A stretch of DNA of 64,000 bases. It comes from Candidatus Zhuqueibacterota bacterium. Its GTDB lineage: Bacteria > Zhuqueibacterota > Zhuqueibacteria > JANLFK01 > Oleimicrobiaceae. The position numbers and the translations under genes were made by a program. The notes under the pieces were generated by a model that worked only from the letters and a program-made list of their open reading frames with translations, was not told where the DNA came from and searched no databases. Within the stretch, counting starts at the first letter, position 1; each line of letters begins with the position of its first letter. The stretch covers positions 133,123-197,122 of the forward strand of contig JANLFK010000007.1 of the NCBI GenBank assembly GCA_024655945.1, read 5' to 3'. Positions 26,525 to 58,379 of the stretch are shown here, piece after piece.

Positions 26525-29499
<2,975 letters not shown>

Positions 29500-32100: not shown

Positions 32101-32104
<4 letters not shown>
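31508..32104 (-). CDS. REP-associated tyrosine transposase (RAYT), copy 2
   Basis: 198 aa from the ATG at 32104 (MTPYDPDRHHRRSIRLKGYDYTQPGAYF..., NHVHGMLWIV, WQRNYHQHILRNE). The ATG overlaps the hsdM TGA (ATGA). A GGAGGTG SD is present. About 60% identical to copy 1. Contains an internal 8-bp-arm palindrome GTAAGGGC-N12-GCCCTTAC (31783-31810). The track ORF to 32683 is a spurious extension. Confidence 0.8.
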
Positions 32105-33681
<1,577 letters not shown>

Positions 33682-33755
33682 CTTTGTCTCCTCCACAAGT
33701 GCCCTGCCGGCACAAAATGGATCAGTTCCCCGCTGCAAGGGGCGGACACGCTGCG

Positions 33756-34343
33756 TCACTCAGCAGAGGGCTCACCTCTTGCTGCGGCGGCCCTTTGCCC
33801 CAGGGACCACTCCTCTCTCAGGATGGCGTAGATCGCCGCGTCTTCGAAGGTGCCCCAGCGGAAGAGCGATTGCCGAAGCGTGCCCTCGTAACGCATTCCG
33901 ATTCTTTGCGTCACCCGCCCTGAAGCCGGGTTCTTGGTCATGTGCCGCGCCTGCACGCGGTTCATACCCAGCACGCGAAAGGCATAGTCCACCATGGCCT
34001 TGGCAGCGTCTGTGCAATACCCCTGGTTCCAATAGGGCCTGCCCACCCAATAGCCGAGCTCGGCGAGCTTGTTGGTGGCGTCGATTGCTGCATGGATTGC
34101 GCCGATGAGTTTCCCGCTATCCCTGAGGGTGATGGCCAGGGTAAGGGCCTGCCCGTTGTCATACGCTTGCTGGTGGGTGGCAATCCACTGTTCGGCCACG
34201 CCATCCCCATAGGGATGAGGGATAGCAGTGGTAGTTGCCGCCACTTCCCGAGCGCCGGCCAGTTCTCGGACGACGGGGGCGTCGTCAAGCCTGAACGGGC
34301 GGAGGATTAGCCGAGCGGTGCTTAACGTTGGCATTGCGGCCAT
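33756..34343 (-). CDS. GNAT-family N-acetyltransferase (RimJ/RimL-like)
   Basis: 195 aa. LILRPFRLDDAP..., acetyl-CoA-binding segment, WNQGYCTDAAKAMVDYAF. Confidence 0.8.
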   Translation of the reverse strand: MAAMPTLSTARLILRPFRLDDAPVVRELAGAREVAATTTAIPHPYGDGVAEQWIATHQQAYDNGQALTLAITLRDSGKLIGAIHAAIDATNKLAELGYWVGRPYWNQGYCTDAAKAMVDYAFRVLGMNRVQARHMTKNPASGRVTQRIGMRYEGTLRQSLFRWGTFEDAAIYAILREEWSLGQRAAAARGEPSAE

Positions 34344-39703: not shown

Positions 39704-40062
39704 GGGGACGACATGGTTTCGACGGGAGTCGCGGGGTTAGAGACTGCATGCCGAGGTTCCAGCACCTCGTAAAACCGCTGGAAGCTAAATGTAAACGCAG
39801 ACAATGCGTATGCTCTGGCTGCCTAATTAGTGCAGCCACGTCCCTTGCGGGCTTAGCCCACTGGGCCCGTGCCGGGGCGTCGCTGACAGTGGGATAGCTG
39901 AGGACGATGCTCAGGCGTCCTTGGCGAATCTTCCCTGAGCTGGCCCGCTCCGGGCTTGGCCGGTTGCGCCTGGAGCAGGCGAGAGCAAGCAACGGGCTAA
40001 GCATGTAGAGGTCTCTAAGACCGGGCTTTCGGACGTGGGTTCGATTCCCACCGTCTCCACCA
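39704..40062 (+). ncRNA. ssrA: tmRNA (ssrA)
   Basis: 5' GGGGACGACATGGTTTCGACGGG pairs with 3' CGTCTCCACCA. T-arm GGGTTCGATTCCC. The tag reading frame 39797-39826 encodes ADNAYALAA*. Confidence 0.85.
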
Positions 40063-40144: not shown

Positions 40145-41233
40145 ATGACCGAACGACCTGCCCTCAGCACTGTTTACTTTGCCCCACTCCGCAGGCAGGA
40201 CCCGCCGGCAGTTGTCGAGGGCACCCTGCACCGCCTTTGTCACAAGGCCGGCATGCGCCAGGTGGTGGCGCCCAAAGACTATGTAGCGGTCAAGCTCCAC
40301 TTTGGCGAAGAGGGAAATGGCACCCACCTGCCGCCCTCTCTGGTGCCACCCATAGTCTCGTTCATCAAGGAGTGTGGGGGACGGCCGTTTCTGACGGACA
40401 CCTGTGTGCTGTACCGAAGCCCCAGGAACAACGCCATCACGCATCTGGAGCTGGCGCACGCGCATGGCTTCACCTTGGAGGCAACGGGGGCGCCCGTGGT
40501 GATGGCGGACGGGGTATTCGGGGACAACGAAGTCGCCGTCCCTATCCCTGGTAAGCTGTTTGCAGAAGTTTCCTTGGCCCGTGAGGCCATGCGCGCCAAT
40601 GCGCTGGTGGTGGTCAGCCATGTGACTGGGCATGTGGCGGCCGGCCTTGGCGCAACCATCAAGAACTTGGGTATGGGGATGGCCAGCAGACGCGGCAAGC
40701 TGCGCCAGCACTCGGCCATGAAACCGCAGGTCAAGCCCGAAGCCTGTACCGGCTGCGGTGAGTGCGTGCGCTGGTGCCCGGAGCAAACCATCGAAATGGG
40801 CGACGGGGTGGCCTTCATCGCCAGCCAGGGGTGCATCGGCTGCGGCGAATGCCTCACTACCTGCCGCTTCGATGCCATCCGCTACGACTGGAAGGTTGCG
40901 GGCGATGACCTGCAGCGCAAGATCGCTGAGCATGCCCTCGGCGCCGTCATCCAGCGGCGGGACAAGGTGCTGTGCTTCAACTTTATCGTTTCTGTGACCA
41001 AAGACTGCGACTGCCTGGCTGTGGCGCAGTCGCCGCTGTTTGCGGACATTGGCGTGCTGGCCAGCCGCGATCCGGTGGCCATTGACAAGGCTGCGCTGGA
41101 CCTCATTGCCCAACGGGTGGGCAGGCCATTGCACCAGATGGCTTATCCCAAGGTGGACGGGATGGTGCAGCTGGCCCACGCCGAGGCTATTGGCTTAGGC
41201 ACTACTGCATACCAGCTGATTGAAGTGCGTTGA
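40145..41233 (+). CDS. DUF362 domain protein with 2x[4Fe-4S] ferredoxin-type domain
   Basis: 362 aa. DUF362 N-terminal region plus CTGCGECVRWCP and CIGCGECLTTC cluster motifs. Confidence 0.8.
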   Translation: MTERPALSTVYFAPLRRQDPPAVVEGTLHRLCHKAGMRQVVAPKDYVAVKLHFGEEGNGTHLPPSLVPPIVSFIKECGGRPFLTDTCVLYRSPRNNAITHLELAHAHGFTLEATGAPVVMADGVFGDNEVAVPIPGKLFAEVSLAREAMRANALVVVSHVTGHVAAGLGATIKNLGMGMASRRGKLRQHSAMKPQVKPEACTGCGECVRWCPEQTIEMGDGVAFIASQGCIGCGECLTTCRFDAIRYDWKVAGDDLQRKIAEHALGAVIQRRDKVLCFNFIVSVTKDCDCLAVAQSPLFADIGVLASRDPVAIDKAALDLIAQRVGRPLHQMAYPKVDGMVQLAHAEAIGLGTTAYQLIEVR

Positions 41234-41407
41234 GGCGTGGAGAAAGCTCTGTTTCGTGACGGAACGCACACGACAAATTGGCACGCTTTACTACCTTTTA
41301 CTTAGCGGTGAACCAGGCGCCCGGGAGGAGCCACGAGCGAGCAGACCGGAAGCAAGGACGAGAGAACTTGGGCACTGTTTTGCCACATCGGTGCCCTGGC
41401 CGGCTTT

Positions 41408-41686
41408 GTGTTCCTCTTTGGCCACATCATCGCGCCGCTGGTGATTTGGCTGATCAAGAAGGAAGAGCTGCCCTTGGTGGACGACCAGGGCAAAGAGTCG
41501 CTTAACTTCCAAATTAGCTTGACCATCTACCTCGTGGCTGCAGGGTTGCTGAGCTTCGTGCTCATCGGCATCTCCCTCCTCATAGCGCTGGGCATTTTCG
41601 GCCTGGTGGAGGTCATCATCGCGGCCGTGCGGGCCAATGAAGGAGAGCGCTTCCGCTACCCGCTGAACCTGCGCCTCATCAAGTAG
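41408..41686 (+). CDS. DUF4870-family small membrane protein (N-terminus probably longer than the ORF call)
   Basis: HIIAPLVIWLIKKEELPLVDDQGKESLNFQI...ANEGERFRYPL matches DUF4870. The same frame upstream encodes the conserved first helix (ERTWALFCHIGALAGFVFLF) back to a stop at 41309, but without an ATG/GTG/TTG. Confidence 0.55.
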   Translation: MFLFGHIIAPLVIWLIKKEELPLVDDQGKESLNFQISLTIYLVAAGLLSFVLIGISLLIALGIFGLVEVIIAAVRANEGERFRYPLNLRLIK

Positions 41687-41805
41687 TGCGCGGCAGGCAG
41701 AGGCCGTGGCAGAAGGCGAAGGTCTTGCCGACGGTTCGCCTCGTTGCCCCGGCCAACGGGTACCGTGCGAACGCCGGCGGCCGCTAAATAGCTGGAGGTC
41801 AACAA

Positions 41806-43500
41806 ATGAGATGGCCAAAGTCTGTCGTGGTGGGGGCGTGTGCCCTCTTCGTGGCGGCGGCGATGCCCGCATTTGCCCAGGTGGCCAAGACGCTTGATCG
41901 CCCGTGGCAGCCGGTGGTCGTCGACGCGAACTCTTTTCCTCAGCTCCATGCGACCCCGGTTGCGCACCTGCACCTATTTGCCTACCACAGCCAACAAGCG
42001 GGAGGCGTGTGGGAGCCGATCCCTTTCCAGATCGACGAGAAAGACTCCACGGATTTCTTCACTTTTCCCCATAACCAGCTATTCGACGGCTTTGACCAAC
42101 TGGTGTTCATGGTGCGCGACCTGGGCGACCAGGCACCACCAGAGGCATGGATCGATGACGTGGAGTCCAGAAGCCACCCGCGCTTGGCGATAGAGGTGGC
42201 TGACGCAGCGGATCCCACGCAAAGAGCCTGGGCCTACCTCTACGTGAGCTCGGCCATCACCACGCCCGCGCCGGATCCGTATGGTGCGTCGTGGCACTGG
42301 GTAGGGCCCGACTCCGAGTGGGTGGAGACGAGTAGCTACGCGGTCGGCTTTGCTCCCTCCGGCCTGATTGGCGATGCACGCATCAAACCTGAAGGGGGCG
42401 GCTCCGGCGTGCACCTGGTGGACACGCAGAAGCTGCGCATGGTGGGCTACTTCAGGTACGATGGGCTGGCCTTCAACCTGGGGAAAAGCGGCAACCCTCC
42501 AGGCAATGAGCGGGACTTCTTCCGCAGGGTCCCAGACTCCACCAGGGTGCTTGCCGGAGCGGTGCGCATCGTTGTCCGGGAGTGGGTGGGGCTTGTGCTC
42601 TTGGGGTGGCAGCTTCCCGTCGGGTTTCCGCTCACCACCTACTTCTATCCTCATAGCGTGAGCTTTGGTGGCGCTATCGACAGCGTGAACCTGCCGCCAG
42701 ATGTGGAGATCAGACTGGACCTGGTGCGGCAGTCGTTGGACCTTACACCTCACGCGTCGGGCATGCGCTTCTACAACGCCTACAACCCTGAAGGCGTGCT
42801 TGTGGATGGTGTGCCTGACACGCCGGTCAGCACCGTGGAAGCGCCCGGGCTCAACTGGGCCATGGTCACGGGGGAGCAGGGCACGATTGTCACTGTCACT
42901 AAGGTGCCTCGCCTTGGTTCCCAGCAGGGGCTCTACTACTGGGATAATGCCGCAGGCGGCTCGGCAGACGGTACGCATGAGTATCTTTTGGGTGGCGATA
43001 CCGGCGATGGCGTCTCGTACGGCGACTTTGGCTACGTGTTTACTGGTGAGACCTTTCCCGTAGCGCTCAGCTTTGAGCTCACCTGCTACTTCCTGCCGGC
43101 ATACCAGTCCCCTGCTGTCGCGGGGGCGCTCAAGGAGTGGGTGGAGACCGGCATGGCGGTGAACGTGCAGGCGCAGAGCTACCTGTCGGGCGTAGCCGCT
43201 GGGCAGGCGGACCGTGTCCCGTCGGCGTGGGCGCTCCACCAGAACTACCCGAATCCGTTCAATCCTGTGACAAGGCTGCAGGTGGAGCTGCCGGCGCGCG
43301 CCTCTGCCGAGCTCCAGATCGTCGATGGCACCGGCCACCAGGTGCGTCGCTTCAGGCTGAGCGGTGCGGGCGGGAGCAGGCAAGAGGTGGAATGGGACGG
43401 GCGCGACGAAGGCGGGGCGGAGCTGCCTTCCGGCGTGTACCTGGCAGTGCTGCGCACGGAGGGTGGCACCCTGGTGCGCAAGATGCTGCTGTTGCGCTAA
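41806..43500 (+). CDS. secreted hypothetical protein with T9SS C-terminal sorting domain (paralog A)
   Basis: Signal peptide ending AFAQ. No known catalytic motif. C-terminal QNYPNPFNPVTRLQVELP...VYLAVL...LLLR matches the T9SS C-terminal domain. Shares blocks (PFQIDE, LVF[ML]V[RG]D[LM]GD.AP..AW[IL]DD, AY[LY]Y.SS, GDTGDGVSYGD[FY]G) with the next gene. Confidence 0.7.
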   Translation: MRWPKSVVVGACALFVAAAMPAFAQVAKTLDRPWQPVVVDANSFPQLHATPVAHLHLFAYHSQQAGGVWEPIPFQIDEKDSTDFFTFPHNQLFDGFDQLVFMVRDLGDQAPPEAWIDDVESRSHPRLAIEVADAADPTQRAWAYLYVSSAITTPAPDPYGASWHWVGPDSEWVETSSYAVGFAPSGLIGDARIKPEGGGSGVHLVDTQKLRMVGYFRYDGLAFNLGKSGNPPGNERDFFRRVPDSTRVLAGAVRIVVREWVGLVLLGWQLPVGFPLTTYFYPHSVSFGGAIDSVNLPPDVEIRLDLVRQSLDLTPHASGMRFYNAYNPEGVLVDGVPDTPVSTVEAPGLNWAMVTGEQGTIVTVTKVPRLGSQQGLYYWDNAAGGSADGTHEYLLGGDTGDGVSYGDFGYVFTGETFPVALSFELTCYFLPAYQSPAVAGALKEWVETGMAVNVQAQSYLSGVAAGQADRVPSAWALHQNYPNPFNPVTRLQVELPARASAELQIVDGTGHQVRRFRLSGAGGSRQEVEWDGRDEGGAELPSGVYLAVLRTEGGTLVRKMLLLR

Positions 43501-43534
43501 GCTCGCGGGGTGCGGCGTTTCGAGTGAGGTGCCT

Positions 43535-45313
43535 ATGAGCACGTGGAGAGTATGGGGTGTGGCCGCGGTGCTGCTGTGCGTGCTGTTGGTGGCGCAGGTC
43601 AGCGCGCAACAGCTCCATCAGGAGCGCCGGTATGAGCCGGTGGTGGTCAAGCACCGGGAGATGCCGATCTGGGAGGACCTGCCCATCGAGCAGCTGTACC
43701 TCTACGCCTACGATGCGTGGACCGGTGTCTGGCGGCCGATGCCCTTCCAGATCGATGAGGTCTACAACACTGAGGACCCGTGCAAGCCTGGGGTGGCGGA
43801 GGCCCACCGCGACTTTTACGTGCAGGTGGGGAGCGCCAACGTCATTGCCGCCGATGCGAACCCGGCCTTTGACTCCGATGACGAGCTCGTCTTTCTGGTG
43901 GGGGACATGGGCGACCGCGCCCCTGATGACGCCTGGCTCGACGACCCGGACGCGCGCCAGCACCGCCGCTGGGAGATTGCGGTCGCCGACCCAGTGAACC
44001 CCTCCTGGCGTTGCTACGCCTACCTCTACCAGTCTTCCACCCTGAACCTGCAGGTGCCTAACCCGTACGGCTTTGCCTTCGACCCGGTGCGGCAGGAGGT
44101 GCAGACGACCATGTACCGCCTCCGCCTCAGCTCCACTAATGGGATGGTAGAGGATGTGGCCATCAAACCTCCGTACGGCAGCGGCGTGGACTTTTTCGAC
44201 ACGCAGAAGATCCGCTTTGCCGGCTACATGGATGTTACCGGTCAGTCCATCTACGTCGGTCTTGGCGGGGCTCCAGCCGCGAATGAGCGTGACAACCTGC
44301 ACGTGTACCAGGCACAGGAGGTGGGGCGCTACTACTTCGGCTACACTGCGCGACCGGTGGTGCGACTGGTGCGCACCGTTCGCCAGACGATCAAGTTCGG
44401 CGTGGTGGTGCTCCATGACATAGCGTTCTACGTCAAGGGCTACTTCTACCCGTTTTCCGCTGCCGTGGTGGGCGGCGCCAATTTGGATCCGGAGAAACTG
44501 AAGGCGGCGTTCAACACGGAGAACGACATCTACATCGAAATGGAACTCCTCCGTCAGTCGTGGGATTTCAACAGCAACGCCGTTGGCATGCGCTTCTACA
44601 ACCGCTTCAATGACGGCGTGCCGATCGATGGCGTGCCGGACGCAGTGAACAGCCAGATCCAGCTGCCCATTCGAGAGTGGGGCCTGGTCACTGGCCCGCA
44701 GGGCAGCATGTTTACCCACGCTACTTTCCGCGACACCACCTGGCAGGGCATTGCCCTCTACTACCACGATAGCCAGCAGGGGGGCGTGGCCGATGGCACT
44801 GCTGGCGGCGACACCGGCGACGGCGTCTCCTACGGCGACTATGGCATGATCTTCCGCGGCAGCGGCCAGGATAGCGTGAACTTGGAGTTGGGTTTTGTCG
44901 CCTACTTTTTGCCGGCCAATTTGCCCCGCAGCGAGGCTGAGAAGCTGGCCTTTATCGTCCAGCACCCGGTCACGGTTTCGGCGCGGGCAGTGGCATATCC
45001 CAGCGGTGTGGCCACGCAAAATCCACAGGCGCCTGCGCAGTCTCGCCTCTTGCCCGCCTTCCCGAATCCTTCTCCCGGTGGCGTCAGACTGCGTTTTGAG
45101 GCCGCAGGGTATGAGCACCTGACCCTGACGGTGATGGACGTGGCCGGGCGTCTGGTGGCCACTGTTGCTGCCGGGGAGTTCGGCCCAGGCAGGCACGAGG
45201 TGTACTGGGACGGCCGCGACTCCCACGGGAACCTGGTCCCCCCGGGTATCTACACGTGCTGGTTGCGTGGCGGCGGGCGCTCCAGGAGCACCAAACTGCT
45301 ACTTGTTCGCTGA
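43535..45313 (+). CDS. secreted hypothetical protein with T9SS C-terminal sorting domain (paralog B)
   Basis: A GAGGTG SD precedes the ATG at 43535 (MSTWRVWGVAAVLLCVLLVAQVSAQ). The track start at 43364 would overlap paralog A. Same conserved blocks as paralog A, plus a T9SS C-terminal domain. Confidence 0.7.
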   Translation: MSTWRVWGVAAVLLCVLLVAQVSAQQLHQERRYEPVVVKHREMPIWEDLPIEQLYLYAYDAWTGVWRPMPFQIDEVYNTEDPCKPGVAEAHRDFYVQVGSANVIAADANPAFDSDDELVFLVGDMGDRAPDDAWLDDPDARQHRRWEIAVADPVNPSWRCYAYLYQSSTLNLQVPNPYGFAFDPVRQEVQTTMYRLRLSSTNGMVEDVAIKPPYGSGVDFFDTQKIRFAGYMDVTGQSIYVGLGGAPAANERDNLHVYQAQEVGRYYFGYTARPVVRLVRTVRQTIKFGVVVLHDIAFYVKGYFYPFSAAVVGGANLDPEKLKAAFNTENDIYIEMELLRQSWDFNSNAVGMRFYNRFNDGVPIDGVPDAVNSQIQLPIREWGLVTGPQGSMFTHATFRDTTWQGIALYYHDSQQGGVADGTAGGDTGDGVSYGDYGMIFRGSGQDSVNLELGFVAYFLPANLPRSEAEKLAFIVQHPVTVSARAVAYPSGVATQNPQAPAQSRLLPAFPNPSPGGVRLRFEAAGYEHLTLTVMDVAGRLVATVAAGEFGPGRHEVYWDGRDSHGNLVPPGIYTCWLRGGGRSRSTKLLLVR

Positions 45314-45333
45314 ACGGCCAGGTGGGGTGAGGC

Positions 45334-46209
45334 ATGAGTATCCGCCGTGGTGGAGGCAGGGGCGTTGCGATCGCCAGCGCCGTCATTGGCGCGGCTGTCC
45401 TGCTAACTGGGCTCTCCTGTGAGGTCGAGCACGGCATTGCCCCGCTGCCGGGCATGGTGCGGGCAAGGGTGCTGTTCTACGGTGGACCACCGCCCAAGAA
45501 CACGCAGGGCATCTACTTGGTTGTGGCCCCCAAGTTTCCGCCGCGCGCCATCAATGAGCTCTACCACAGCCCCAATAGCCTGCCCTTCAAATGGGATGCC
45601 GTCCGCGACACGGTGATGGCGGAGATGGCTCTCCCTTACGGCCATTACGAGGCCATCAGCCTGTGGTGGTACAACACCGAGACCAAGTCCAATCTTGCTG
45701 ACGTGCTTGCCCTGCCTCTGGACGCCAGGAATAACCTCCTGCCCTTGGGATTCGATATCACCAAGGAGGAGCCGGTCTTTGCAATCGACCTGCGTGCCAA
45801 TTGGAGCCGCGTTGACCGCGACGCGAGCATCGAGGGGACTCTCTACTTCAACGGGCCTTTCCCTGCGAACACGCTGGCCACGGCGGTTGCCGCCTATGTG
45901 CGCAAGCCTGAGGTGAATGTCGAGTATCTGACCCTGCTCAAGTCCATCGACTTTTCTGTGGGCACAGAATCCGACAACTTCGATGCCCAGAAGAACGCCT
46001 ACCACTACGTGCTCCCGGTACGGCACGGGACGGTGGAGTACGTGGCTGTGTTCTGGCTGCCGGAGCGGGCCAGCTTGACTGACTTTCGCGTGCTCGGCAT
46101 CTACGAAGACCCGGACGCCCCAGGGCAGCCGGGCAAGCTGAGCATCAAGGCCGGTGAAACGAAGAAGGGGGCGGATATCTTCGTCGACTGGGCAAAGGCC
46201 AAGCCGTAG
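45334..46209 (+). CDS. hypothetical (lipo)protein
   Basis: 291 aa. Signal peptide with Cys (LLTGLSC). No recognizable domain. Confidence 0.55.
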   Translation: MSIRRGGGRGVAIASAVIGAAVLLTGLSCEVEHGIAPLPGMVRARVLFYGGPPPKNTQGIYLVVAPKFPPRAINELYHSPNSLPFKWDAVRDTVMAEMALPYGHYEAISLWWYNTETKSNLADVLALPLDARNNLLPLGFDITKEEPVFAIDLRANWSRVDRDASIEGTLYFNGPFPANTLATAVAAYVRKPEVNVEYLTLLKSIDFSVGTESDNFDAQKNAYHYVLPVRHGTVEYVAVFWLPERASLTDFRVLGIYEDPDAPGQPGKLSIKAGETKKGADIFVDWAKAKP

Positions 46210-46226
46210 GCTCAGGAGAAGGAGAG

Positions 46227-48401
46227 ATGCGCAAGCTCCATTGCTTGCTTCTGGTCTTTGCCGTTGCCGGGGCAGCAGTCCGCGCTGGCCATGCAGGGGT
46301 GGGGAGCGTGGCTGGCACGGTGGTGGACAGCGAGACCGGCAAGCCGCTGCCTGGCGCCAATGTGCAGGTGTTGGGCACCACGCGCGGGGCCAGTGCCGAC
46401 CGGGAAGGGCACTTTGTGGTGGTTCACCTGCCACCTGGCACCTACAGCGTGCGCGCCTCGATGATCGGCTACCGGGCGGTCACTCGCGAGTGGGTGAAGG
46501 TGGTCGAGGGCCAGGAGACGTGCCTCAGCTTTTCCCTGCAGCCTGCCCCCATCGAATTCGACCCCATAGTTGTGGTGGCTGGCAAGGCGCAGCAGCGGCT
46601 GGACCAGGCGGCGGTGTCCATTTCCGTGGTGAGCGCGCGCGACATCCAACGGCGCAATGCTACCAATCTGCTCGAGGCGTTGGAGACAGCGCCTGGGGTT
46701 AATTTCATCGGCGAGCAGATCAACATCCGCGGCTCCACCGGCTACACTTTTGGCGCAGGCAACAAGGTCTTGCTCCTGTTGGACGGCGTGCCGGTCTATG
46801 CCAGCGACACAGGTCAGTTCAACTGGGACATGCTGCCGCCGCTGGACATTGAGCAGATCGAGGTCCTGAAAGGCGCCGGCTCCACGCTCTGGGGCGCCTC
46901 GGCCCTGGGCGGCGTGGTCAACGTCGTCACCAAGTCGCCTTCGCCCAAGGGGCAACTGCTCTTTTCATGGACTGCGGGCAAGTACGACCGGCCCTACTAC
47001 GATGAGTGGCGCTGGACCGATCCCGACCGCCTGCACTACACGCGCGAAGACCTGAGCTACAGCCGCAGCTTTGGCCCTTTGGGCCTGCGGCTTTCGGCCG
47101 GGCGCTTTATGTCCACCGGCTACACGCAACTGGGCGACTTTCAGAAATACAACCTCACGGGGCGCGCCGACTACCGCTTTCGCAACAACGTGCGCTGGAC
47201 GCTCTATGCCGCGTACAGCTTCATCAAGCGTGGCTTTTTCGTCCAGTGGAAAGGGCAGAACGACCCCTACGAGGTGGACGAGGCGAACCTTGGCAATCGG
47301 GCGGCGACCAATCAGCTGGCCTGTTATGCCAAAGTCGTGGTGCCGTTCTCTGCGCGGGTGGCGCTGCATGTGCGGGGCTCGCTGGTGCGCACGCTCATGG
47401 GCAATCAGTTCGGCGCGGAGGCCAATTTCAATCCGGCGTGGGGACAGGGGGTTGAGCTCCAGGCGGATTGGCTGCCTCACGACCGCCACACCATCACCGG
47501 CGGCCTGCAGTACCAGCACGACGCCGGCAGCACCAAGTACTTTGGTAGCCACAGGGGCTTTTTCGTGGGGCCCTACGTGCAGGACGAATGGCGCGTGCGC
47601 GACAACCTGCGTCTGACCGGCGGCCTGCGCTATGACCGCTACCAAATCGTCGGCGGCCTGAAGGAGGACCTGTTCAGCCCCCGCCTTGGCGTCAACTGGC
47701 AGCCTTGGGCGAACGCCAGCCTGCGCGCTTCGGTGGGCAGCGGCTTCCGGGCGGCAACCATCGTGGAGCGCTATCTCGAGCTGACGGTGATGAACTTCAA
47801 GATCAAGGCCAATCCCGGCATTCGCGCGGAGCGGTCGTGGGCCTATGACCTCGGCTTCTGCCAGTACCTCATGCGCGACTGGAATGTGGACGTCTCCTTC
47901 TTCGACAATGAGTACTGGGACATGATTGAGGCGCACCTGGATTTGATTCGCGGGCAGATCCAGTTTCGCAACGTGACGCGCGCCAGGGTTCGCGGCGTGG
48001 AAGCCACCACCAACCTCAGCGTGCCGTTCCGCCTGCTGGGCCGTAGATGGACCGCTGGACTGCACCTCAGCACCACGGCCATGGACCCGCGCGACATCAA
48101 GTGGAATGAGCCCCTCACCTATCGGCCAAAGGTGCTCACCACGGTGAAAGCCGATCTGCGCCTGGGCAGGCTGCAAGGCGAAATCGACTACCGTTACGCC
48201 AGCAAGATCGACAAAGTCAAGGTCTACCCCATCAACGAGCGGGTGCCAATGAAGTTTGTGGACCTGCGCTTTGGCGTGGAGTTGGGCAAAGTCGCCTTGC
48301 GGGCAAGTGTGAACAACCTTCTGCAGTACAACTATGCGCCCATGGAGAGCAACCTCATGCCCATGCGCACGTTTCTTGTCGGCCTGCAAGGTGGCTTCTG
48401 A
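46227..48401 (+). CDS. TonB-dependent outer-membrane receptor with N-terminal carboxypeptidase-regulatory-like domain
   Basis: Signal peptide. CarbopepD_reg beta-sandwich (GTVVDSETGKPLPGANVQVLGT...GTYSVRAS.IGY), plug domain, 22-strand barrel, C-terminal aromatic residue (...LQGGF). Confidence 0.85.
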   Translation: MRKLHCLLLVFAVAGAAVRAGHAGVGSVAGTVVDSETGKPLPGANVQVLGTTRGASADREGHFVVVHLPPGTYSVRASMIGYRAVTREWVKVVEGQETCLSFSLQPAPIEFDPIVVVAGKAQQRLDQAAVSISVVSARDIQRRNATNLLEALETAPGVNFIGEQINIRGSTGYTFGAGNKVLLLLDGVPVYASDTGQFNWDMLPPLDIEQIEVLKGAGSTLWGASALGGVVNVVTKSPSPKGQLLFSWTAGKYDRPYYDEWRWTDPDRLHYTREDLSYSRSFGPLGLRLSAGRFMSTGYTQLGDFQKYNLTGRADYRFRNNVRWTLYAAYSFIKRGFFVQWKGQNDPYEVDEANLGNRAATNQLACYAKVVVPFSARVALHVRGSLVRTLMGNQFGAEANFNPAWGQGVELQADWLPHDRHTITGGLQYQHDAGSTKYFGSHRGFFVGPYVQDEWRVRDNLRLTGGLRYDRYQIVGGLKEDLFSPRLGVNWQPWANASLRASVGSGFRAATIVERYLELTVMNFKIKANPGIRAERSWAYDLGFCQYLMRDWNVDVSFFDNEYWDMIEAHLDLIRGQIQFRNVTRARVRGVEATTNLSVPFRLLGRRWTAGLHLSTTAMDPRDIKWNEPLTYRPKVLTTVKADLRLGRLQGEIDYRYASKIDKVKVYPINERVPMKFVDLRFGVELGKVALRASVNNLLQYNYAPMESNLMPMRTFLVGLQGGF

Positions 48402-48437
48402 GAAAGGAAAGGAGTGGCAACAGCATTGGAGGCGAAG

Positions 48438-49664
48438 ATGAGACGCGACCTGACCAGGCGGGAGTTTATGGCCAACGCGGCGTTGGGGGGACTGGTGCTG
48501 GGGACGGCGTGGCCATTGATGCGGTCGTTAGGCACGCAGCAGCCCCCGGCGCCAAAGGTGATCTACCGCCCACTGGGCAAGACAGGGGTTCGTCTGCCCA
48601 TCGTCAGCTTCGGGGTGATGAACTCCGACAGCCCAGACCTGCTGCGCAAGGCTCTTGACCTCGGCGTGCGCCACTTGGACACGGCGCATGGCTACATGGG
48701 CGGCAAGAGCGAGGAGGTCATTGGCACCATTGTGGCCGAGCGCACGTGCCGCGACCGCGTGGTCATCGGCACCAAGCTCTGGTTTGCCCGGGACCGCGAG
48801 GGGAACTTTCTCACCGCCGACCGTGGCCCGAATCCCGGCGCCACACAGGAAAACTTTGACCGCATGCTGGGCATCAGCCTGAAGAGGCTGCAGAGCGACT
48901 ATGTGGATATCCTCTACTTGCACAGCTGCCAGACGGCGGGCATGGTTACCCACGAGCCTCTCCTGAAAATCTTCGCGGAGGCCAAGAAGAAGGGGCTGGC
49001 GCGCTTTGTCGGCATCTCCACCCATTCCAACGAGCCGGAGGTGATCCGTGCGGCAGCGGACAGCGGCGTGTGGGATGTGGTCCTCACCGCCTACAACTAC
49101 CTCCAGGGCCATCGCGACGAGGTGCGCGCGGCCATCAAGTACGCGGCCGACAAGGGCCTTGGCGTGGTTGCCATGAAGACGCAGGCAGGAGCGCGCATGA
49201 ACCAGCGGCGGAGCGTCAACCATGCGGCAGCCCTCAAGTGGGTGCTCAATGACGAGCACGTGTGCACCACCATCCCCGGGGTCACGACGTTTGAGCAACT
49301 GGAGCTGGATTGGGGACTGATGGCCAACCTCAAACTGACTGAGGAGGAAGAAAAGGACCTGCAGCTTTCGGCCGCAACGCCAGGATCGTTCTACTGCCAC
49401 GGCTGTCGCTCGTGCGTGGCCTCGTGTCCGCAGCAGGTGGAGATTCCCACGGCCATGCGCGCCTACATGTACGCCTTTGCCTATGGCAACCGCCGGCAGG
49501 CGCACCAGGCGTTGGCAGAGTTCGCCGACCAGCGTGGACTCGCCCCCTGCCGGGACTGCGAGCGGTGTGTGGCCTCCTGCCGGCACGGCATCCCGATCGG
49601 CGCGCGCGTTCAGGGCGTCCTTGCCTTGGCAGGTGCGCATGACCACTCTGTGCAGCAAGTGTGA
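48438..49664 (+). CDS. TAT-exported aldo/keto reductase with C-terminal [4Fe-4S] ferredoxin-like domain
   Basis: Twin-arginine motif TRREFMANAALGG. AKR fold (GVRHLDTAHGY...). C-terminal CHGCRSCVASCP and CRDCERCVASC motifs. Confidence 0.75.
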   Translation: MRRDLTRREFMANAALGGLVLGTAWPLMRSLGTQQPPAPKVIYRPLGKTGVRLPIVSFGVMNSDSPDLLRKALDLGVRHLDTAHGYMGGKSEEVIGTIVAERTCRDRVVIGTKLWFARDREGNFLTADRGPNPGATQENFDRMLGISLKRLQSDYVDILYLHSCQTAGMVTHEPLLKIFAEAKKKGLARFVGISTHSNEPEVIRAAADSGVWDVVLTAYNYLQGHRDEVRAAIKYAADKGLGVVAMKTQAGARMNQRRSVNHAAALKWVLNDEHVCTTIPGVTTFEQLELDWGLMANLKLTEEEEKDLQLSAATPGSFYCHGCRSCVASCPQQVEIPTAMRAYMYAFAYGNRRQAHQALAEFADQRGLAPCRDCERCVASCRHGIPIGARVQGVLALAGAHDHSVQQV

Positions 49665-49674
49665 GGTGTACGCG

Positions 49675-50607
49675 ATGAGAAGTTTCCGCCCATCTTCGTT
49701 CAGGTTGGTCGGAGCTTTGGCGATCTTTGCGGTCGCGACAAGCTGTGTGGCGCAGGGCAGTGCCCAGCGGGAGGTCTTGGCTGCCCTGCTGCCCACTGCT
49801 GAGGACCTGCCGGGCTGGCAGCGTAGCGAGCCACTGCAATTTTTCCTGCCCGACAACTTGTGGGAGTACATCGACGGCGCCGCTGATCTGTACTTGGAGT
49901 ACGGCTTCCAGGCGGTGGTCGCTGCCGAGTACATGACGGCCGACAGCGCCCGCTCGCTCACTGTGGAGGTCTACCGCATGGCTACGCCGCTGGGCGGCTT
50001 TGGCATCTACGCGGCGGAGCGCTCCCCTGAGGACAGCATTGTGGCCGTGGGCGTGCAGGGGCGCCTGAGCGAAAATACCCTCAACTTCTGGAAGGGGCCT
50101 TTCTACGTCAAGCTCACTTCGTTTGACGTGGCGGAAGACGTGCCGCAGGTGCTCGCCCATGCGGCGCAGCGCATTGCGCAACGCATCCCAGGGGAGTTCG
50201 CCCAGCCTGCGCTGTTCGGCTGCTTTCCGGAGGAGCAGCGTGTGCCGCACAGCGAGCGCTACATCCCGCGCCACTTTCTGGGGCAAGCCTTTCTGCACGA
50301 TGCCTATCGCGTGGACTACCAGCATGGGGCAGTGGGGTGTCAGCTTTTCTTGGTCCCCACCGACTCGGCTGAGCAGGCGCTGCGCCGTTTGCTCGACTTT
50401 GCCCGCTCACAGGGGCAGAAGGTGGTGACCGACGAGGTGGGCGGCGTGCAGGTCACCTGCATGGGCGACGACCGCTGGATGATGGTCTTTGCCCTGCGCG
50501 GTCTGCTTGGGGGTGCCATTGGCGTCGTGGACCTGGAGGCGGGCAAGACGCTGGTGGGGCGGCTGCTGGCACGGGTGGCGGAGTGCCGGGCGGTTCAGGG
50601 GAGGTAG
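49675..50607 (+). CDS. hypothetical secreted/lipoprotein
   Basis: A GAGGTG SD precedes the ATG at 49675. Signal peptide ...FAVATSC. The preceding 66 codons of the track ORF overlap the AKR gene. Confidence 0.55.
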   Translation: MRSFRPSSFRLVGALAIFAVATSCVAQGSAQREVLAALLPTAEDLPGWQRSEPLQFFLPDNLWEYIDGAADLYLEYGFQAVVAAEYMTADSARSLTVEVYRMATPLGGFGIYAAERSPEDSIVAVGVQGRLSENTLNFWKGPFYVKLTSFDVAEDVPQVLAHAAQRIAQRIPGEFAQPALFGCFPEEQRVPHSERYIPRHFLGQAFLHDAYRVDYQHGAVGCQLFLVPTDSAEQALRRLLDFARSQGQKVVTDEVGGVQVTCMGDDRWMMVFALRGLLGGAIGVVDLEAGKTLVGRLLARVAECRAVQGR

Positions 50608-51387
50608 GTGAGACTTGGTTTGACGAGGGACCCCAGGCTGCAGTCTGAGTTAGCAAGGCAAGGTTTTTGAGGCCGGAGGCGGCGCCGGGCTGCTCCGCCG
50701 TGGCGTTTGAGCAAGGCGGCGCTCCTAAGGTGTGGCGTGCTCGCACCGACAAGCCGGGTGCAGCTCTGCGCTGGAGCTCGGGGGGCTGCGCCTCATTGCC
50801 AGGAACCTCCCCAGCCGCCTCCCGGGTCAGGAGCCAGCGCCGGGCGCTGCCGTGATTTGCTTCCGCCGCAACTTGTCCTCTTCCCAAAGGCCATGCCGAT
50901 CAGGTATGGGCTGTGCGCCAGTCGCGATCAGCCCATGGACTCTTGCAGTTGCCACATTTTCTCCGGGAAGACCCCCACTATTTGCTGCGCCAGCCAGGCC
51001 GTGGACGCATCCACTCGTGTCAGGCGATGCCATCTTGGCGGTTCTGCTCGAGGCGACGGTTCACAAGCGAGGGCCGGTGGCCTTAGGCGCGGCCTGTTCT
51101 GCCTCTCGTTGGCAGCACGTCCTAAGCTACTGAAGTCGTCCTGACTTCGCCAGAGCGAGCGCGCCATATCGCCGCAATGTGCCCCGGCGTCCCGCAGGAA
51201 GTCCTTCGCCAGCGCCCAGGCCCCACCGGCCCTGCAAGTTTTCACCGCCTTGCGTGTTCAAAGGCCGTGAACAGCTCTCGCCGGCTTTGCAGACAGACGG
51301 CGGCGGGAACTCTTGCGCCGGAATTCCGTACAGAGCATCAGTGCTGTCGACTTTCGCGGAACCGAGCCGTTCTATCAGAGGGAGCGT

Positions 51388-52299
51388 ATGGTCATCACAA
51401 TTGAAGGCCTGACCAAGGTCTACGAAGGCGGAAAGAAAGCCATCGACGACATTAACCTACGCATCGAGAGCGGGATGTTTGGCCTGCTCGGGCCCAACGG
51501 TGCCGGCAAGACCACCCTCATGCGTATTCTGGCCACCCTCATGAAGCCCAGCGCCGGGGTGGTCAAGTTCAACGGCCTGGACCTGCAAAAAGACCGCCGC
51601 GCCATCCGCGCCATGCTCGGCTATCTGCCCCAGGATTTTCGCCTCTTTTCCCGCCTCACCACCTGGGAGTTTCTGGACTATATCGCCGCGCTCTCCGGCC
51701 TCAAGGACAGCCGCGCCCGGAAAAAGGCCGTGGCCAACATGTTAGAGCAGGTGGGGTTGTACGAGGTTGGTGACCGCCAGGCGAACAAGCTCTCCGGTGG
51801 CATGAAGCGGCGCTTGGGCATCGCCCAGGCACTCATCGGTGACCCCAAGGTGGTCATCGTCGACGAGCCCACCACCGGGTTGGATCCGGAGGAGCGCATC
51901 CGCTTCCGCAACCTCCTCTCGGACATGACGCGGCGCGACATTATCATCATCTTGTCCACGCACATCGTGGGCGACATCTCCAGCACCTGCCGCAAGATGG
52001 CGCTGCTCAATGACGGCCACCTGGTCTTCGAAGGGGCGCCGGACGCCTTGATCGAGCAGGCAAAAGGCCACGTCTGGCGCATCAAGGCGGCCGACTCTCA
52101 GTTGGAGGCGATCAAGGAGCGCTATCCGGTCATTGCCACCATCCCCGCCGAAGCGGGCTGGGAGGTAGAAGTGGTGGCCGAGAACTTGGACACCTATCCC
52201 GGCAAGCCCATCGACCCAAACTTGGAGCACGCCTATGTCTTCTTCATGGAGTACAAGTTGGGGGCGTCGCTGGACGAGAAGGAGTTGGCCGAGAGGTAG
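51388..52299 (+). CDS. ABC transporter ATP-binding protein (ABC-2 / gliding-GldA-like subfamily)
   Basis: Walker A GLLGPNGAGKTT, signature LSGGMKRRL, Walker B VVIVDEPTTGLD, H-loop. A GAGGGAG SD precedes the ATG at 51388. Confidence 0.9.
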   Translation: MVITIEGLTKVYEGGKKAIDDINLRIESGMFGLLGPNGAGKTTLMRILATLMKPSAGVVKFNGLDLQKDRRAIRAMLGYLPQDFRLFSRLTTWEFLDYIAALSGLKDSRARKKAVANMLEQVGLYEVGDRQANKLSGGMKRRLGIAQALIGDPKVVIVDEPTTGLDPEERIRFRNLLSDMTRRDIIIILSTHIVGDISSTCRKMALLNDGHLVFEGAPDALIEQAKGHVWRIKAADSQLEAIKERYPVIATIPAEAGWEVEVVAENLDTYPGKPIDPNLEHAYVFFMEYKLGASLDEKELAER

Positions 52300-52335
52300 G
52301 CGTGACGTCATCTATTGCATAGCGAGGTGAAGAGG

Positions 52336-55300
52336 ATGTTATCCATACACAATATCTGGACAGTGGCCCGGTTTGAGATAAAGACGCTGCTGCGCAGCTG
52401 GTTCTTCCGCATCTTCGCCGGGCTGGCGGTGATCGGCCTCTTTGTGCTGAACCTGCTTTTGCTCACCAACGTGGGCAATTCGCCGTGGATCTTCCGCGGC
52501 CTGCCTGCATCGGTGCCGTACATGAACCTGTCGCTGCTCAACGTGGTGCAGGCGGTGATCGCAGTCTTCCTGGCCTCCGACTTTTTGAAGCGCGACAAGA
52601 AGTTGGACACCACCGAAGTGGTCTACATGCGCTCGATGACCAACGGCGACTATGTGTTCGGCAAGACCTTGGGTATCTTCTTGGTCTTCCTGGGCCTGAA
52701 CGTGGCGGTCCTCCTGGTGGCGGGGGTGTTCCACTCGGCCTTCAGCGGCCTGCCTTTTGGCGTGAAACCGTACCTTCTGTACACGCTGCTCATCAGCCTG
52801 CCGACGCTTTTCTATGTGTTCGGCTTAGCGTTCCTGCTCATGTCCCTCATCCGCAACCAGGCGGTGACCTTTGTGGTGCTCCTCGGCTACATCGGCCTGA
52901 CGCTCTTTGTGTTAGGGGGCGAGGCTCACCAGCTTTTCGACTACATGAGCTTCAACGTGCCGCTGATGTACTCGGACTTTGTCGGGTTTGGGAATATCGG
53001 TAAGGTGCTGATCCACCGGGGGATCTATTTCTGTCTGGGCGTTTCCTTTATCGCTGCCACGGTGCTCCTTCTGCGCCGCCTCCCGCAATCGATGGGGATG
53101 CTGCGCCTGGCGGCGGTTCTGGCCGTAGTATTCTTTGTGGCGGGTGTGGCATTGGCCGTGATGCATGTCCGCAGCTTCTTCGACGTGCGGGCACAACGCA
53201 AAGAGATGGTGGAGCTGAACACCTCGTTAGCGAGTCTGCCGCGCCCAAGTTTAGCCAGCATGCGCATAGCAGTGGACCACAAGGGCGACCGGCTGCACGG
53301 CGAAGCCACCATGGCGTTGCGCAACGAGGCCTCGCAGCCGCTCTCCCGGCTGGTAGTGGCGTTGAACCCGGGTTTGCAGGTTGAGCGGGTGGAGCAAAGC
53401 GGCCGGCCGGTAAGCGTGGCCCGTCGGCGCCACCTGTTGGAACTGACGCTTCCCGAAGCCCTGCAGCCGGGAGAGGTAGATTCAGTGCGCGTCGCCTACA
53501 GCGGCACTATCGACGAAGCGGCCTGCTACCTGGATGTGGACAATGCCAAGCGGGAAGCGCTCTATCGCGTGGCGCTGTTCAACATCGACAAGCGGCACGC
53601 ACTGGTAACCAAGGAGTTCGTGCTGCTCACCTCAGAGGCGCTTTGGTACCCGCGGCCAGGCGTCACCTACACGCCCCATGAGCCGACCGTGGTCGCCCCT
53701 GACTTTGCCCGGTTTACCCTGCAAGTGAGCACCTCGCCGGGTCTCCAGGCTATCTCCCAGGGTGAGGTGAGCAGCATAGCGCCGGGCAAGTTCGTGTTCC
53801 GGCCGGAGGTTCCATTGCCCAGCATGTCGTTGGTCATCGGCCCGTACCAGCAGCGCAGCATTACGGTTGACTCGGTGCAGTACGCGCTTTACACCTGGCC
53901 TGGCCACGACTATTTTCGCTCCTACTTCACCGAGGTGAGCGACACCTTGGGCGCCTTGATCAGGGAGATCAAGCAGGACTATGAGGTGCGGGTGGACATG
54001 AAGTACCCCTACCATCGTCTCTTCCTGGTGGAGGCGCCGGTGCAGTTCTATGCGTACCCCCGCGCCTGGGGAGGAGCGCAGGAGACCGTGCAGCCGCAGA
54101 TGGTCTTTTTGCCGGAAAAGGGCGTGTTCCTGCCGGCGGCGGATTTTCGCGAAGCCATGCGGCGGGAGCGCTGGCGCGCGCAGCGCACCAACCAGATCAG
54201 CACCCCCAAGGAGACGCAGACACGCCTGTTCCGCCAGTTCGTGGGCACCACGCTGGTCTCAGGCATGACCATGATTCGCATCGGCAGAGGTGGCGACCCT
54301 TTGAGCAGTGCCGGCTACAACGTCTTCCCCAACTACTATGCCTTTGCCACTGCGGTGCGCTCGGCGCAGTGGCCGTTTCTCAACCTGGCCATGGAGGCGT
54401 TCTTGCGGGCGCGGGCGGAGACAGGGTTCGCGCCGCCGTTCCGGTTCTTCTCAGGCTTGACGCAGGAAGAAAAGGTGAACCAAGCCCTGCAGGAGAAGAG
54501 CCTGCAGGAGCTCCTTGCTGATGCGCGCTACCAGGATCTGGTTGCCGATGCCATCAAGCTGAAAGGGACTTTTCTCTTCAGTTATCTGCAACATCGCATT
54601 GGCACGGAGCGGTTCAATGAGTTTCTGCGCCAATGGCTCGCGGCCAAGCGATTCAAGGCTGTCGATGCGCAGGAACTGGTGGCGGAGCTGCGCGATCGCT
54701 TTGGCATCGACTTGAGGAGCCTGCTGGCGGAATGGTCCACAAGCCGCCAGCTCCCCGGCTTCCTGCTGAGCAACATCGAAGGGTACAAGGTGCTGGACGG
54801 CGAGCGGACGCGGTATCAGGTAAAGTTTAAGGTCTCCAACCTCGAGCCGGCGGAGGGGCTGCTGGCCCTCACGTTCCGCGTGGCGGGAGGCGGCCCAGGG
54901 TTCGGCTTTGGCCCTCCGGGCTTCGGACAGGCCAACGAGGTACAGCGCACCGTGGTGCTGGCGGGCAATCAGACCAAAGAGGTGGGTATCGTGCTGGACG
55001 ACCAGCCGCGCATGGTGACCATCAACACTTTGACCTCGCGCAACCTCCCTTCGGTCATCAGCAGGCCATTCGATGAGTTTCAGGAGAACAAGAAGGCGGT
55101 GCCGTTCGAAGGGGAGCGCATCGTCAGCGAGCCGGTAGCCCTGGTCAATTCCGGCGAGCTGGTGGTGGACAACGAGGATCCGGGGTGCCATGTCGTTGGG
55201 AGCGCCAGCGGAAGCCCATTGCGCCATCTGCTCGGCGCCGGCTCTGCGAACAACCAGGAACGCTACGTGGCCATGCAGTTCTGGCGCCTGCCCCCGGAGT

Positions 55301-55707
55301 GGAAGGCCACCGTGCAGGCCAGCTTCTACGGCCGGTATGTGCGCTCGGCCTACTTCACCAAACCGGGCGGGGGCGATAAGGTGGTCTCCTGGACTACCCA
55401 TTTGCCTGCGCCTGGCTACTATGGCGTCTACTACTACAGCGGCGGTGCCATGCCGGGCTTCAGGCGCTTCGGCCCTGGCGGTGGAGGTCGACCGGGCGAA
55501 CGACCGCGCGACAGCGGGCAGTACCACTTCCGCATCCACCACGATGATGGTGTGGACGATGTAGTCTTCGACCGCGCCCAGGCAGAAGAAGGGTGGAACT
55601 TTTTGGGGCGCTACTACCTCTCCGGCGATAGCGCCAAGGTGGAGCTGACCAACAAGAGCGACGCGCGCGTCATCTTTGCCGACGCCGTCAAGTGGGTCAA
55701 GGAATGA
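52336..55707 (+). CDS. ABC-2 family permease fused to a large (~800 aa) extracytoplasmic domain (ABC permease/M1-aminopeptidase-like fusion; no HEXXH found)
   Basis: The N-terminal ~300 aa form a 6-TM ABC-2 permease. The remainder is soluble and resembles the permease/M1-family fusions annotated in FCB bacteria, but I could not find a zinc-binding HEXXH+E motif. Confidence 0.7.
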   Translation: MLSIHNIWTVARFEIKTLLRSWFFRIFAGLAVIGLFVLNLLLLTNVGNSPWIFRGLPASVPYMNLSLLNVVQAVIAVFLASDFLKRDKKLDTTEVVYMRSMTNGDYVFGKTLGIFLVFLGLNVAVLLVAGVFHSAFSGLPFGVKPYLLYTLLISLPTLFYVFGLAFLLMSLIRNQAVTFVVLLGYIGLTLFVLGGEAHQLFDYMSFNVPLMYSDFVGFGNIGKVLIHRGIYFCLGVSFIAATVLLLRRLPQSMGMLRLAAVLAVVFFVAGVALAVMHVRSFFDVRAQRKEMVELNTSLASLPRPSLASMRIAVDHKGDRLHGEATMALRNEASQPLSRLVVALNPGLQVERVEQSGRPVSVARRRHLLELTLPEALQPGEVDSVRVAYSGTIDEAACYLDVDNAKREALYRVALFNIDKRHALVTKEFVLLTSEALWYPRPGVTYTPHEPTVVAPDFARFTLQVSTSPGLQAISQGEVSSIAPGKFVFRPEVPLPSMSLVIGPYQQRSITVDSVQYALYTWPGHDYFRSYFTEVSDTLGALIREIKQDYEVRVDMKYPYHRLFLVEAPVQFYAYPRAWGGAQETVQPQMVFLPEKGVFLPAADFREAMRRERWRAQRTNQISTPKETQTRLFRQFVGTTLVSGMTMIRIGRGGDPLSSAGYNVFPNYYAFATAVRSAQWPFLNLAMEAFLRARAETGFAPPFRFFSGLTQEEKVNQALQEKSLQELLADARYQDLVADAIKLKGTFLFSYLQHRIGTERFNEFLRQWLAAKRFKAVDAQELVAELRDRFGIDLRSLLAEWSTSRQLPGFLLSNIEGYKVLDGERTRYQVKFKVSNLEPAEGLLALTFRVAGGGPGFGFGPPGFGQANEVQRTVVLAGNQTKEVGIVLDDQPRMVTINTLTSRNLPSVISRPFDEFQENKKAVPFEGERIVSEPVALVNSGELVVDNEDPGCHVVGSASGSPLRHLLGAGSANNQERYVAMQFWRLPPEWKATVQASFYGRYVRSAYFTKPGGGDKVVSWTTHLPAPGYYGVYYYSGGAMPGFRRFGPGGGGRPGERPRDSGQYHFRIHHDDGVDDVVFDRAQAEEGWNFLGRYYLSGDSAKVELTNKSDARVIFADAVKWVKE

Positions 55708-55754
55708 GACTGGGGAGCGCAGGTACGAGTCGGTTCTATGCAGTGGAGAGAAGG

Positions 55755-57257: not shown

Positions 57258-57284
57258 CAGGTGGCTACCCGAAGGTCGGAGTGG

Positions 57285-58349: not shown

Positions 58350-58379
58350 CGGCCCGGACCGCAACGAGAAAGCAGAGCA

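Follow-up and report, generated by a model that had tools for sequence, protein, structure and literature searches.

We describe a four-gene cassette in a 64,000-nucleotide stretch of DNA from Candidatus Zhuqueibacterota bacterium (contig JANLFK010000007.1, positions 133,123 to 197,122; hereafter, the window), in which two adjacent paralogs carrying type IX secretion system (T9SS) sorting domains, XA and XB of a family that we call X, are followed by a lipoprotein (Y) and a TonB-dependent transporter (Z). The X-Y-Z order is conserved across KSB1 (Zhuqueibacterota), an uncultured phylum of the Fibrobacteres-Chlorobi-Bacteroidetes (FCB) group: in a synteny set of 67 Y-containing loci, counting those with enough flanking sequence, X lies immediately upstream of Y on the same strand in 52/53 and Z immediately downstream of Y in 56/57. 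We regard it as probable that XA/XB, Y and Z constitute one TonB-dependent capture-and-import module of the outer membrane, whose exposed head would be delivered by the T9SS.

FCB-group bacteria harvest nutrients by TonB-dependent uptake with surface accessory proteins and, to our knowledge, the accessories described so far are lipoproteins, such as SusD, BtuG, XusB and HmuY. That TonB-dependent transporters can be paired with accessory proteins of the cell surface is already well known; new here are a T9SS cargo as fixed partner, two uncharacterised families and conservation throughout a phylum. We know of no characterised T9SS cargo that has a TonB-dependent transporter as its fixed operon partner and found nothing comparable in the literature; papers on KSB1 and T9SS, on Zhuqueibacterota, and on T9SS cargo with TonB transporters yielded no description of the cassette. 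The nearest named relatives are metagenome-assembled genomes (MAGs) that bear the labels Calditrichaeota, candidate division KSB1, Candidatus Oleimicrobiaceae or Zhuqueibacterota, and a protein identical to XB is on record from a Joint Genome Institute (JGI) contig. KSB1, recently renamed Zhuqueibacterota, is an uncultured lineage of the FCB superphylum from hot springs and sediments (PMC11683472).

Composition of the cassette

The four genes are co-directional on the plus strand (Table 1), with intergenic gaps of 34, 20 and 17 nt, and no plus-strand terminator-like site was seen within the cassette in a scan of the window; both features fit an operon. The true start of XB is ATG 43535, with GAGG ahead of it, and the GTG 43364 of the mechanical list of open reading frames (ORFs) is wrong; XB residues, including the conserved positions given below, are counted from 43532, and are thus one higher than when counted from the ATG. 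The G+C content of the window ranges from 58 to 66% over 2-kb intervals.

Table 1. Genes and sorting domains of the cassette, in window positions
Feature	Position	Strand	Description
XA	41806..43500	+	T9SS-secreted paralog A, 564 aa; Sec signal, novel core, linker, type-A C-terminal domain
XA T9SS type-A C-terminal sorting domain	43237..43500	+	about aa 478-564
XB	43535..45313	+	T9SS-secreted paralog B, 592 aa
XB T9SS C-terminal sorting domain	45044..45313	+	low-confidence linker before it
Y	45334..46209	+	novel-family lipoprotein, 291 aa; lipidated Cys29 at nt 45418
Z	46227..48401	+	TonB-dependent transporter, 724 aa; N-terminal CarboxypepD_reg domain

The original prediction, made from the letters and their ORFs, had described two adjacent secreted paralogs of about 570-590 aa that share four blocks, match no known family and both end in T9SS C-terminal domains, and each of these statements holds. 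XA and XB (564 and 592 aa) align over their full length with 36% identity (E 3e-87), far beyond chance, and are true paralogs; the blocks PFQIDE, LVFxVxDxGDxAPxxAWxDD, AYLYxSS and GDTGDGVSYGDxG all occur in both. Inspection places a Sec signal at either N-terminus, that of XA being cleaved after AFAQ. At the other end, XA passes TIGR04183 (27.1 bits; cut-off 23) and PF13860 (29.4 bits; cut-off 27; aa 481-561), XB falls below the former (17.3 bits) and passes the latter, FlgD_ig, with 39.1 bits, and PF18962 is matched by 44/45 family members. The last residues of both proteins follow the pattern K-hydrophobic-L-L-hydrophobic-R, and in the PDB the family profile picks out T9SS C-terminal domains of solved structure (PorU, PorZ and SprA-bound cargo). 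X therefore carries the Por_Secre_tail C-terminal sorting domain (TIGR04183 / PF18962) by which type-A T9SS cargo is recognised. With such cargo (gingipains, ChiA, SprB-type adhesins) it has in common a Sec signal, a head, a flexible linker or spacers, and a C-terminal β-sandwich sorting domain of about 80 residues of the Por_Secre_tail/FlgD_ig type; it differs in that its head belongs to an undescribed family and in forming an orthologous group fixed in an operon with a TonB-dependent transporter.

Outside this domain the proteins fall into no known family. Pfam and NCBIfam match only the C-terminal ~85 residues, whether XA and XB or 45 members singly are searched, and X profiles (45 and 73 diverse members) run against all PDB sequences up to E = 10 retrieve only FlgD/T9SS C-terminal domains. 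On such searches the X family, and likewise Y, are undescribed and have no recognised sequence relatives. Among 188 homologs of XB, those that are named come mostly from KSB1, Calditrichaeota or Zhuqueibacterota MAGs. XB is the ortholog of the single X of most KSB1 cassettes. XA, on the other hand, is only ~40% identical to the XB group and has one close relative, its ortholog P0262 in locus L068 (62% identical), an XA gene being also present in L067; XA thus stems from a separate duplication, old but confined to this thermophilic clade. An exhaustive profile search at E ≤1e-30 gave up to 594 cluster representatives, with a number of unrelated FlgD_ig-repeat proteins among them; the few named members are from KSB1, plus one 'Bacteroidetes' MAG. 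Members measure between about 530 and 1560 aa, and in the longer ones spacers of the cohesin, fn3 or InlB-B-repeat type separate the core from the C-terminal domain, which would fit a head held off the cell surface.

Structure models, conserved residues and the transporter

The AlphaFold2 model of XB, computed from the family alignment (predicted local distance difference test, pLDDT, 87.5; predicted template modelling score, pTM, 0.76), is all-β, with an N-terminal sandwich (~36-211), a large sandwich (~220-490), a disordered linker (492-501, pLDDT <50) and the C-terminal domain. Foldseek against the PDB ranks galactose-mutarotase-like supersandwich domains best (E 1e-5 to 1e-3), in GH38 α-mannosidases, GH2 LacZ, PL26 lyase, GH116 and a GH174 fucanase, as weak matches with template modelling (TM) scores of 0.22-0.33 and 7-11% sequence identity. 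X is accordingly modelled as a β-sandwich plus a galactose-mutarotase-like β-supersandwich, with likeness to solved structures at the level of the fold only. Compared with the known galactose-mutarotase-like domains (GH38 C-terminal, LacZ domain 5, PL26/PL4, GH116 N-terminal), the central part of X is likewise modelled as an all-β supersandwich, but profile-level similarity is lacking and catalytic residues cannot be mapped, so that the resemblance is a fold-class lead only. No assignment to a glycoside hydrolase (GH) or polysaccharide lyase (PL) family that would place catalytic residues was obtained from sequence or structure, and the GH174 fucanase was dropped as a guide to function, a published review being silent on its fold and the TM of 0.28-0.32 too low to use.

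The core is strongly constrained: 28 positions keep their residue in ≥95% of a set of 235 core sequences whose identity falls as low as 26%, namely R32, P71, Q73, D75, D117, D125, G127, W135, R146, Y164, Y179, Y195, D223, K226, R228, R278, R341, S343, D345, G367, W383, G391, Y410, D413, G429, G435, D436 and G438. XA retains all 28, and both paralogs are probably functional. K226/R228 and R341/S343/D345 show alternating spacing on predicted β-strands, a pattern that in the model would suit a ligand cleft on the face of a sheet, and the GDTGDxxSYGD loop may, by inference only, be likened to a metal-binding loop. His, Cys and Met are absent from the 28 positions, M353 standing alone in the 85-95% class. 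Conservation to this degree is better suited to an enzyme, or to a binder of high specificity, than to a diversifying glycan-binding protein.

Y is a lipoprotein, since its signal peptide ends in a Cys that is invariant in 41/41 homologs (mean column identity 57%); the lipobox in the window reads LTGLS-C, with a non-canonical position -3. Pfam and NCBIfam contain no match to it, a profile search of PDB sequences up to E = 10 yielded no credible one, and taken together with 40 homologs it has no Pfam match at E ≤1 beyond noise. Its AlphaFold2 model (pLDDT 87.9, pTM 0.68) consists of two tandem immunoglobulin-like β-sandwiches. Foldseek against the PDB retrieves BT_0210, FimA/Mfa-type putative adhesins of Bacteroides/Porphyromonas and Gram-positive pilins, a generic tandem-sandwich likeness with TM ≤0.32; for BF2867, PG_0181, Mfa3 and Mfa4 the Foldseek probability rises up to 1.0, yet TM is 0.19-0.25 and Pfam finds no match.

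The co-directional lipoprotein and CarboxypepD_reg-type TonB-dependent receptor of the original prediction are both borne out, the latter by three domains above their cut-offs: PF13620 CarboxypepD_reg (72 bits), PF07715 Plug (89.9; cut-off 23.9) and the PF00593 barrel (127.8; cut-off 27). Z has the plug and the 22-strand-type barrel that mark a TonB-dependent transporter, ends in Phe, and bears a putative TonB box, DPIVVVA (aa 112-118), assigned by eye against the consensus, between the N-terminal domain and the plug. It does not belong to the SusC/RagA type (TIGR04056, about 1000 aa). As a separate observation, in the complete 5.2-Mb genome CP070762 (L001, 12784-14120) the cassette transporter is called as 445 aa, with N-terminal domain and plug and without barrel, as though the copy there were frameshifted, misassembled or decayed.

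The features of Z bear on the reading that the cassette scavenges a metal chelate or cofactor (siderophore, haem, vitamin), X being a secreted hemophore-like carrier and Y-Z its receptor, after the manner of HasA/HasR, HmuY/HmuR, XusAB or BtuBG. Z is sized like transporters of small ligands, its best NCBIfam models are the TonB-hemin and hemoglobin/transferrin subfamilies (TIGR01785, 162 bits; TIGR01786, 144 bits), among PDB sequences CirA, PirA, ShuA, PhuR and Bacteroides XusA (9gbc) match it best, and the very high conservation of Y and Z would suit a single defined ligand. Every substrate-specific NCBIfam model nevertheless scores far below its cut-off (317 for TIGR01785, 324 for TIGR01786, and 224 for TIGR01783, which gives 102 bits), and the PDB matches are confined to the generic plug or, for XusA, to N-terminal domain plus plug. 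The highly conserved His, Cys or Met usual for ligation of haem or metal are missing from X. Upstream of X no E. coli-type Fur box was found in 52 loci (best, 5/19 mismatches), and Rfam reports no riboswitch, cobalamin included, in the window or in six loci. Nor do promoters offer a common signal: none was found in the scan of the window, strong sigma-70-like sites lie ~100 nt upstream of X in L001, L008, L015 and L055, sigma-54-like sites occur in three lineages, and the whole is heterogeneous. We hold this reading to be unlikely; a part in handling haem, siderophores or vitamins is conceivable, though unsupported.

The comparison with XusAB (xenosiderophores), BtuBG (B12) and HmuYR (haem) is nonetheless instructive as to layout, because these systems likewise join a standard-size transporter to one dedicated lipoprotein in a compact, self-contained cassette, and XusA has the N-terminal domain and plug architecture in common with Z. 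XusB and BtuG are of the β-propeller type and HmuY has a distinct all-β fold; Y has no sequence match to any of the three. Unlike the cassette, those systems are not known to have an obligatory T9SS-secreted partner, and no iron or B12 regulatory signal is seen here.

Genomic context

A scan with the Y profile over one genome per GTDB species returned 61 loci, all of them in MAGs whose label reads KSB1, Zhuqueibacterota, Calditrichota, 'uncultured Cytophagia' or just bacterium. Co-occurrence with TonB receptors across genomes, advised as a check in the original prediction, is near-invariant among Y-containing loci, as the counts of X upstream and Z downstream of Y indicate. When neighbours were clustered over 68 loci, X, Y and Z were the only universal genes, and the flanks of distant loci proved wholly different. 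In five distant loci X is followed by a 266-287-aa protein without Pfam match and then by a CarboxypepD_reg transporter, their neighbours being mutually unrelated.

The absence of other conserved partners matters for the possibility of an ordinary polysaccharide utilization locus (PUL), in which X would bind or cleave glycans, Y would be an analogue of SusD or of a surface-glycan-binding protein, and Z a SusC analogue importing oligosaccharides. The fold matches of X to galactose-mutarotase-like domains of GH38, GH2 (LacZ), PL26, GH116 and GH174 enzymes speak for it, as do the conserved Arg, Lys, Tyr, Trp and Asp on β-strands, typical of carbohydrate sites, and the N-terminal CarboxypepD_reg domain of Z, found also in SusC-type transporters. 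The cassette moreover resembles the SusC/SusD PULs of Bacteroidota in that the gene for a CarboxypepD_reg-type TonB-dependent transporter has those for an outer-membrane lipoprotein and one more surface protein as neighbours, and the logic of surface capture followed by TonB-powered import is likely shared. Y, however, is not SusD-like, having no Pfam match and an all-β model against the α-helical SusD, and neither the 68-locus clustering nor the window neighbours (DUF362/Fer4, aldo-keto reductase with Fer4, DUF6599, ABC transporter) include a linked carbohydrate-active enzyme (CAZyme) or PUL-type regulator. On these grounds the cassette is not a SusC/SusD PUL, and we give the glycan version little credence. 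The PUL-like capture-and-import layout of the original prediction thus survives in its second half, as the best reading of the cassette, and not in its first; the structure prediction and remote-homology searches that it had advised for the paralogs and the lipoprotein gave only fold-class likeness and no glycoside hydrolase assignment.

X-like and Z-like genes are also found together outside the cassette proper. Just upstream of X-Y-Z, 11 loci encode a divergent Z' (32-39% identical to Z) with a divergent X' (26-33% identical) immediately after it, and X' follows Z itself in L003/L004 and L055, so that the pairing of the two families recurs in two gene orders. The idea that XA is the counterpart of X' was ruled out, as XA, apart from its own ortholog, is nearest to the XB group (~40%).

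Directly upstream of X, 21 loci from several subclades carry a gene for a cytoplasmic pyridoxal-phosphate (PLP) enzyme with the Pfam domains Ala_racemase_N and D-ser_dehydrat, whose closest relatives of solved structure are D-threonine aldolase, D-3-hydroxyaspartate aldolase and D-serine dehydratase. In L042 (156-10027), and also in L033, L035, L036, L048 and others, it is embedded in an extended operon, Z'-X'-(PLP enzyme)-X-Y-Z, of abutting or overlapping ORFs (in L042, X' 2260-4002, PLP enzyme 4002-5147 and X 5131-6933). The linkage is old, given that the copies are only 42-59% identical to that of L042. About ten loci have a transglutaminase-like gene upstream of the PLP enzyme gene, and the L019 copy reads as a lipoprotein. 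The window itself contains no D-threonine-aldolase-family gene.

A third reading dispenses with import: X would be a surface adhesin or coat, and Y-Z would serve its export, its anchoring or outer-membrane biogenesis, like Oar for PopC in Myxococcus. A CarboxypepD_reg-domain transporter is indeed known to act in protein secretion (PMC6434023). Distant tandem X-X pairs, in L069 (8001-11778) and L070 (8001-12896), have no TonB-dependent transporter within 8 kb; the X family as a whole is therefore not obligately linked to a transporter, and the pairing of two X-like genes recurs independently of one. Adhesin-style spacers in many X-family members, and the FimA/Mfa-type putative adhesins of Bacteroides and Gram-positive pilins among the nearest folds of Y, point the same way. 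Against this, X has its own export signal in the T9SS C-terminal domain, 28 near-invariant charged and aromatic residues would be unusual for a purely structural protein, the FimA/Mfa-type fold matches of Y reach TM ≤0.25 with no FimA/Mfa Pfam match, and a cytoplasmic catabolic enzyme embedded in 21 related operons fits nutrient uptake. We consider a structural, adhesin or export role very unlikely and rank it lowest, while the transporter-free pairs keep it alive.

As regards the immediate surroundings in the window, a DUF362 protein with 4Fe-4S domains is encoded upstream of the cassette (40145-41233, +), and 12 nt past Z begins a gene that fuses an aldo-keto reductase to a 4Fe-4S dicluster domain and bears a twin-arginine signal, followed by DUF6599 (48414-50607, +). 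The DUF362/Fer4, MamF_MmsF-like, aldo-keto reductase/Fer4 and DUF6599 neighbours are common only to the closest relatives (L006, L067 and L068), where the arrangement around the cassette is the same, and, being absent from distant loci, were rejected as core parts; in this clade the redox pair may be transcribed together with the cassette. The MamF_MmsF-like gene, for a small membrane protein (41312-41686, +), is kept in L067/L068 as a 117-aa ORF, and in the window has ACG at the ATG of the relatives and no in-frame start before GTG 41408; the start could be non-canonical, the sequence in error or the gene in decay. The minus-strand ORF overlapping it (41291-41872) looks spurious. There are no T9SS core genes in the 64-kb window; in L067 (XB ortholog 77% and transporter 87% identical) an SprA_N gene (sprA, of the T9SS translocon) lies 5.7 kb downstream of the cassette.

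Elsewhere in the window, a further T9SS cargo of 2842 aa (1278-9806, +) is probably a surface adhesin of giant size; it combines ten Big_1/invasin-type immunoglobulin-like repeats with MG4, fn3 and Big_9 domains and has FlgD_ig/Por_Secre_tail at its C-terminus. A full-length tmRNA gene (39704-40062, +; Rfam RF00023, 213.9 bits) sits between an M28 peptidase region and the DUF362 gene. Type I restriction-modification genes encode HsdR (26521-29478, -; 985 aa) and HsdM (32101-33759, -; 552 aa), and the 30-32 kb stretch between the two has the lowest G+C of the window (0.583). Finally, 51313-61466 (+) encodes an ATP-binding cassette (ABC) ATPase, then an ABC-2 permease-like protein of 1130 aa that is weakly similar to M1 peptidases and has a Golvesin_C domain, and then an outer-membrane factor, HlyD-type membrane-fusion protein and AcrB resistance-nodulation-division (RND) efflux set.

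Proposed mechanism and significance

In the capture-and-import module that we favour, X would cross the inner membrane via Sec and the outer membrane via the T9SS, whereupon its C-terminal domain would be removed and a β-rich head of ~50 kDa tethered on the cell surface or released nearby. The head would capture, and possibly cleave, one defined extracellular substrate by means of the conserved Arg/Lys/Asp/Tyr/Trp/Ser on the β-strands of the N-terminal sandwich and the galactose-mutarotase-like supersandwich. The substrate or product would then be handed, through physical contact of X with Y and Z, to a Y-Z complex in which Y plays the part of a transporter-associated lipoprotein, as SusD, BtuG, XusB or HmuY do, and Z would import it to the periplasm on TonB energy. 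Several points weigh against this scheme: no inner-membrane transporter, TonB/ExbBD genes or regulator are conserved with the cassette in the 68-locus clustering; the Fur box and riboswitch searches came back empty; the L069 and L070 pairs are free of transporters; and we know of no cultured member of KSB1.

As to the substrate, the modelled fold of X hints weakly at a carbohydrate-like or anionic ligand, and the D-threonine-aldolase-family gene of the 21 related operons suggests one that yields D-configured 2-amino-3-hydroxy acids. Broader, and distinctly more tentative when taken as a whole, is the proposal that X represents a new family of T9SS-delivered surface enzymes or carriers, with dedicated TonB-dependent transporter partners reached via a new lipoprotein adaptor, Y, in an uptake design undescribed in Bacteroidota or elsewhere. 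Its target may be peptides, siderophore-like compounds or amino-sugar acids yielding products of the D-serine, D-threonine or D-3-hydroxyaspartate type, a lead to an unusual substrate that is drawn from the fusion of the aldolase-family gene into the operon in 21 lineages.

Should the mechanism hold, two major machines of the outer membrane, the T9SS and TonB-dependent transport, would be linked in a new way, and two well-modelled, highly conserved protein families would acquire a testable role. Throughout an entire uncultured phylum, common in both sediments and hot springs, the arrangement around a T9SS cargo is a fixed one, and the identity of the substrate would reveal what KSB1 bacteria scavenge.

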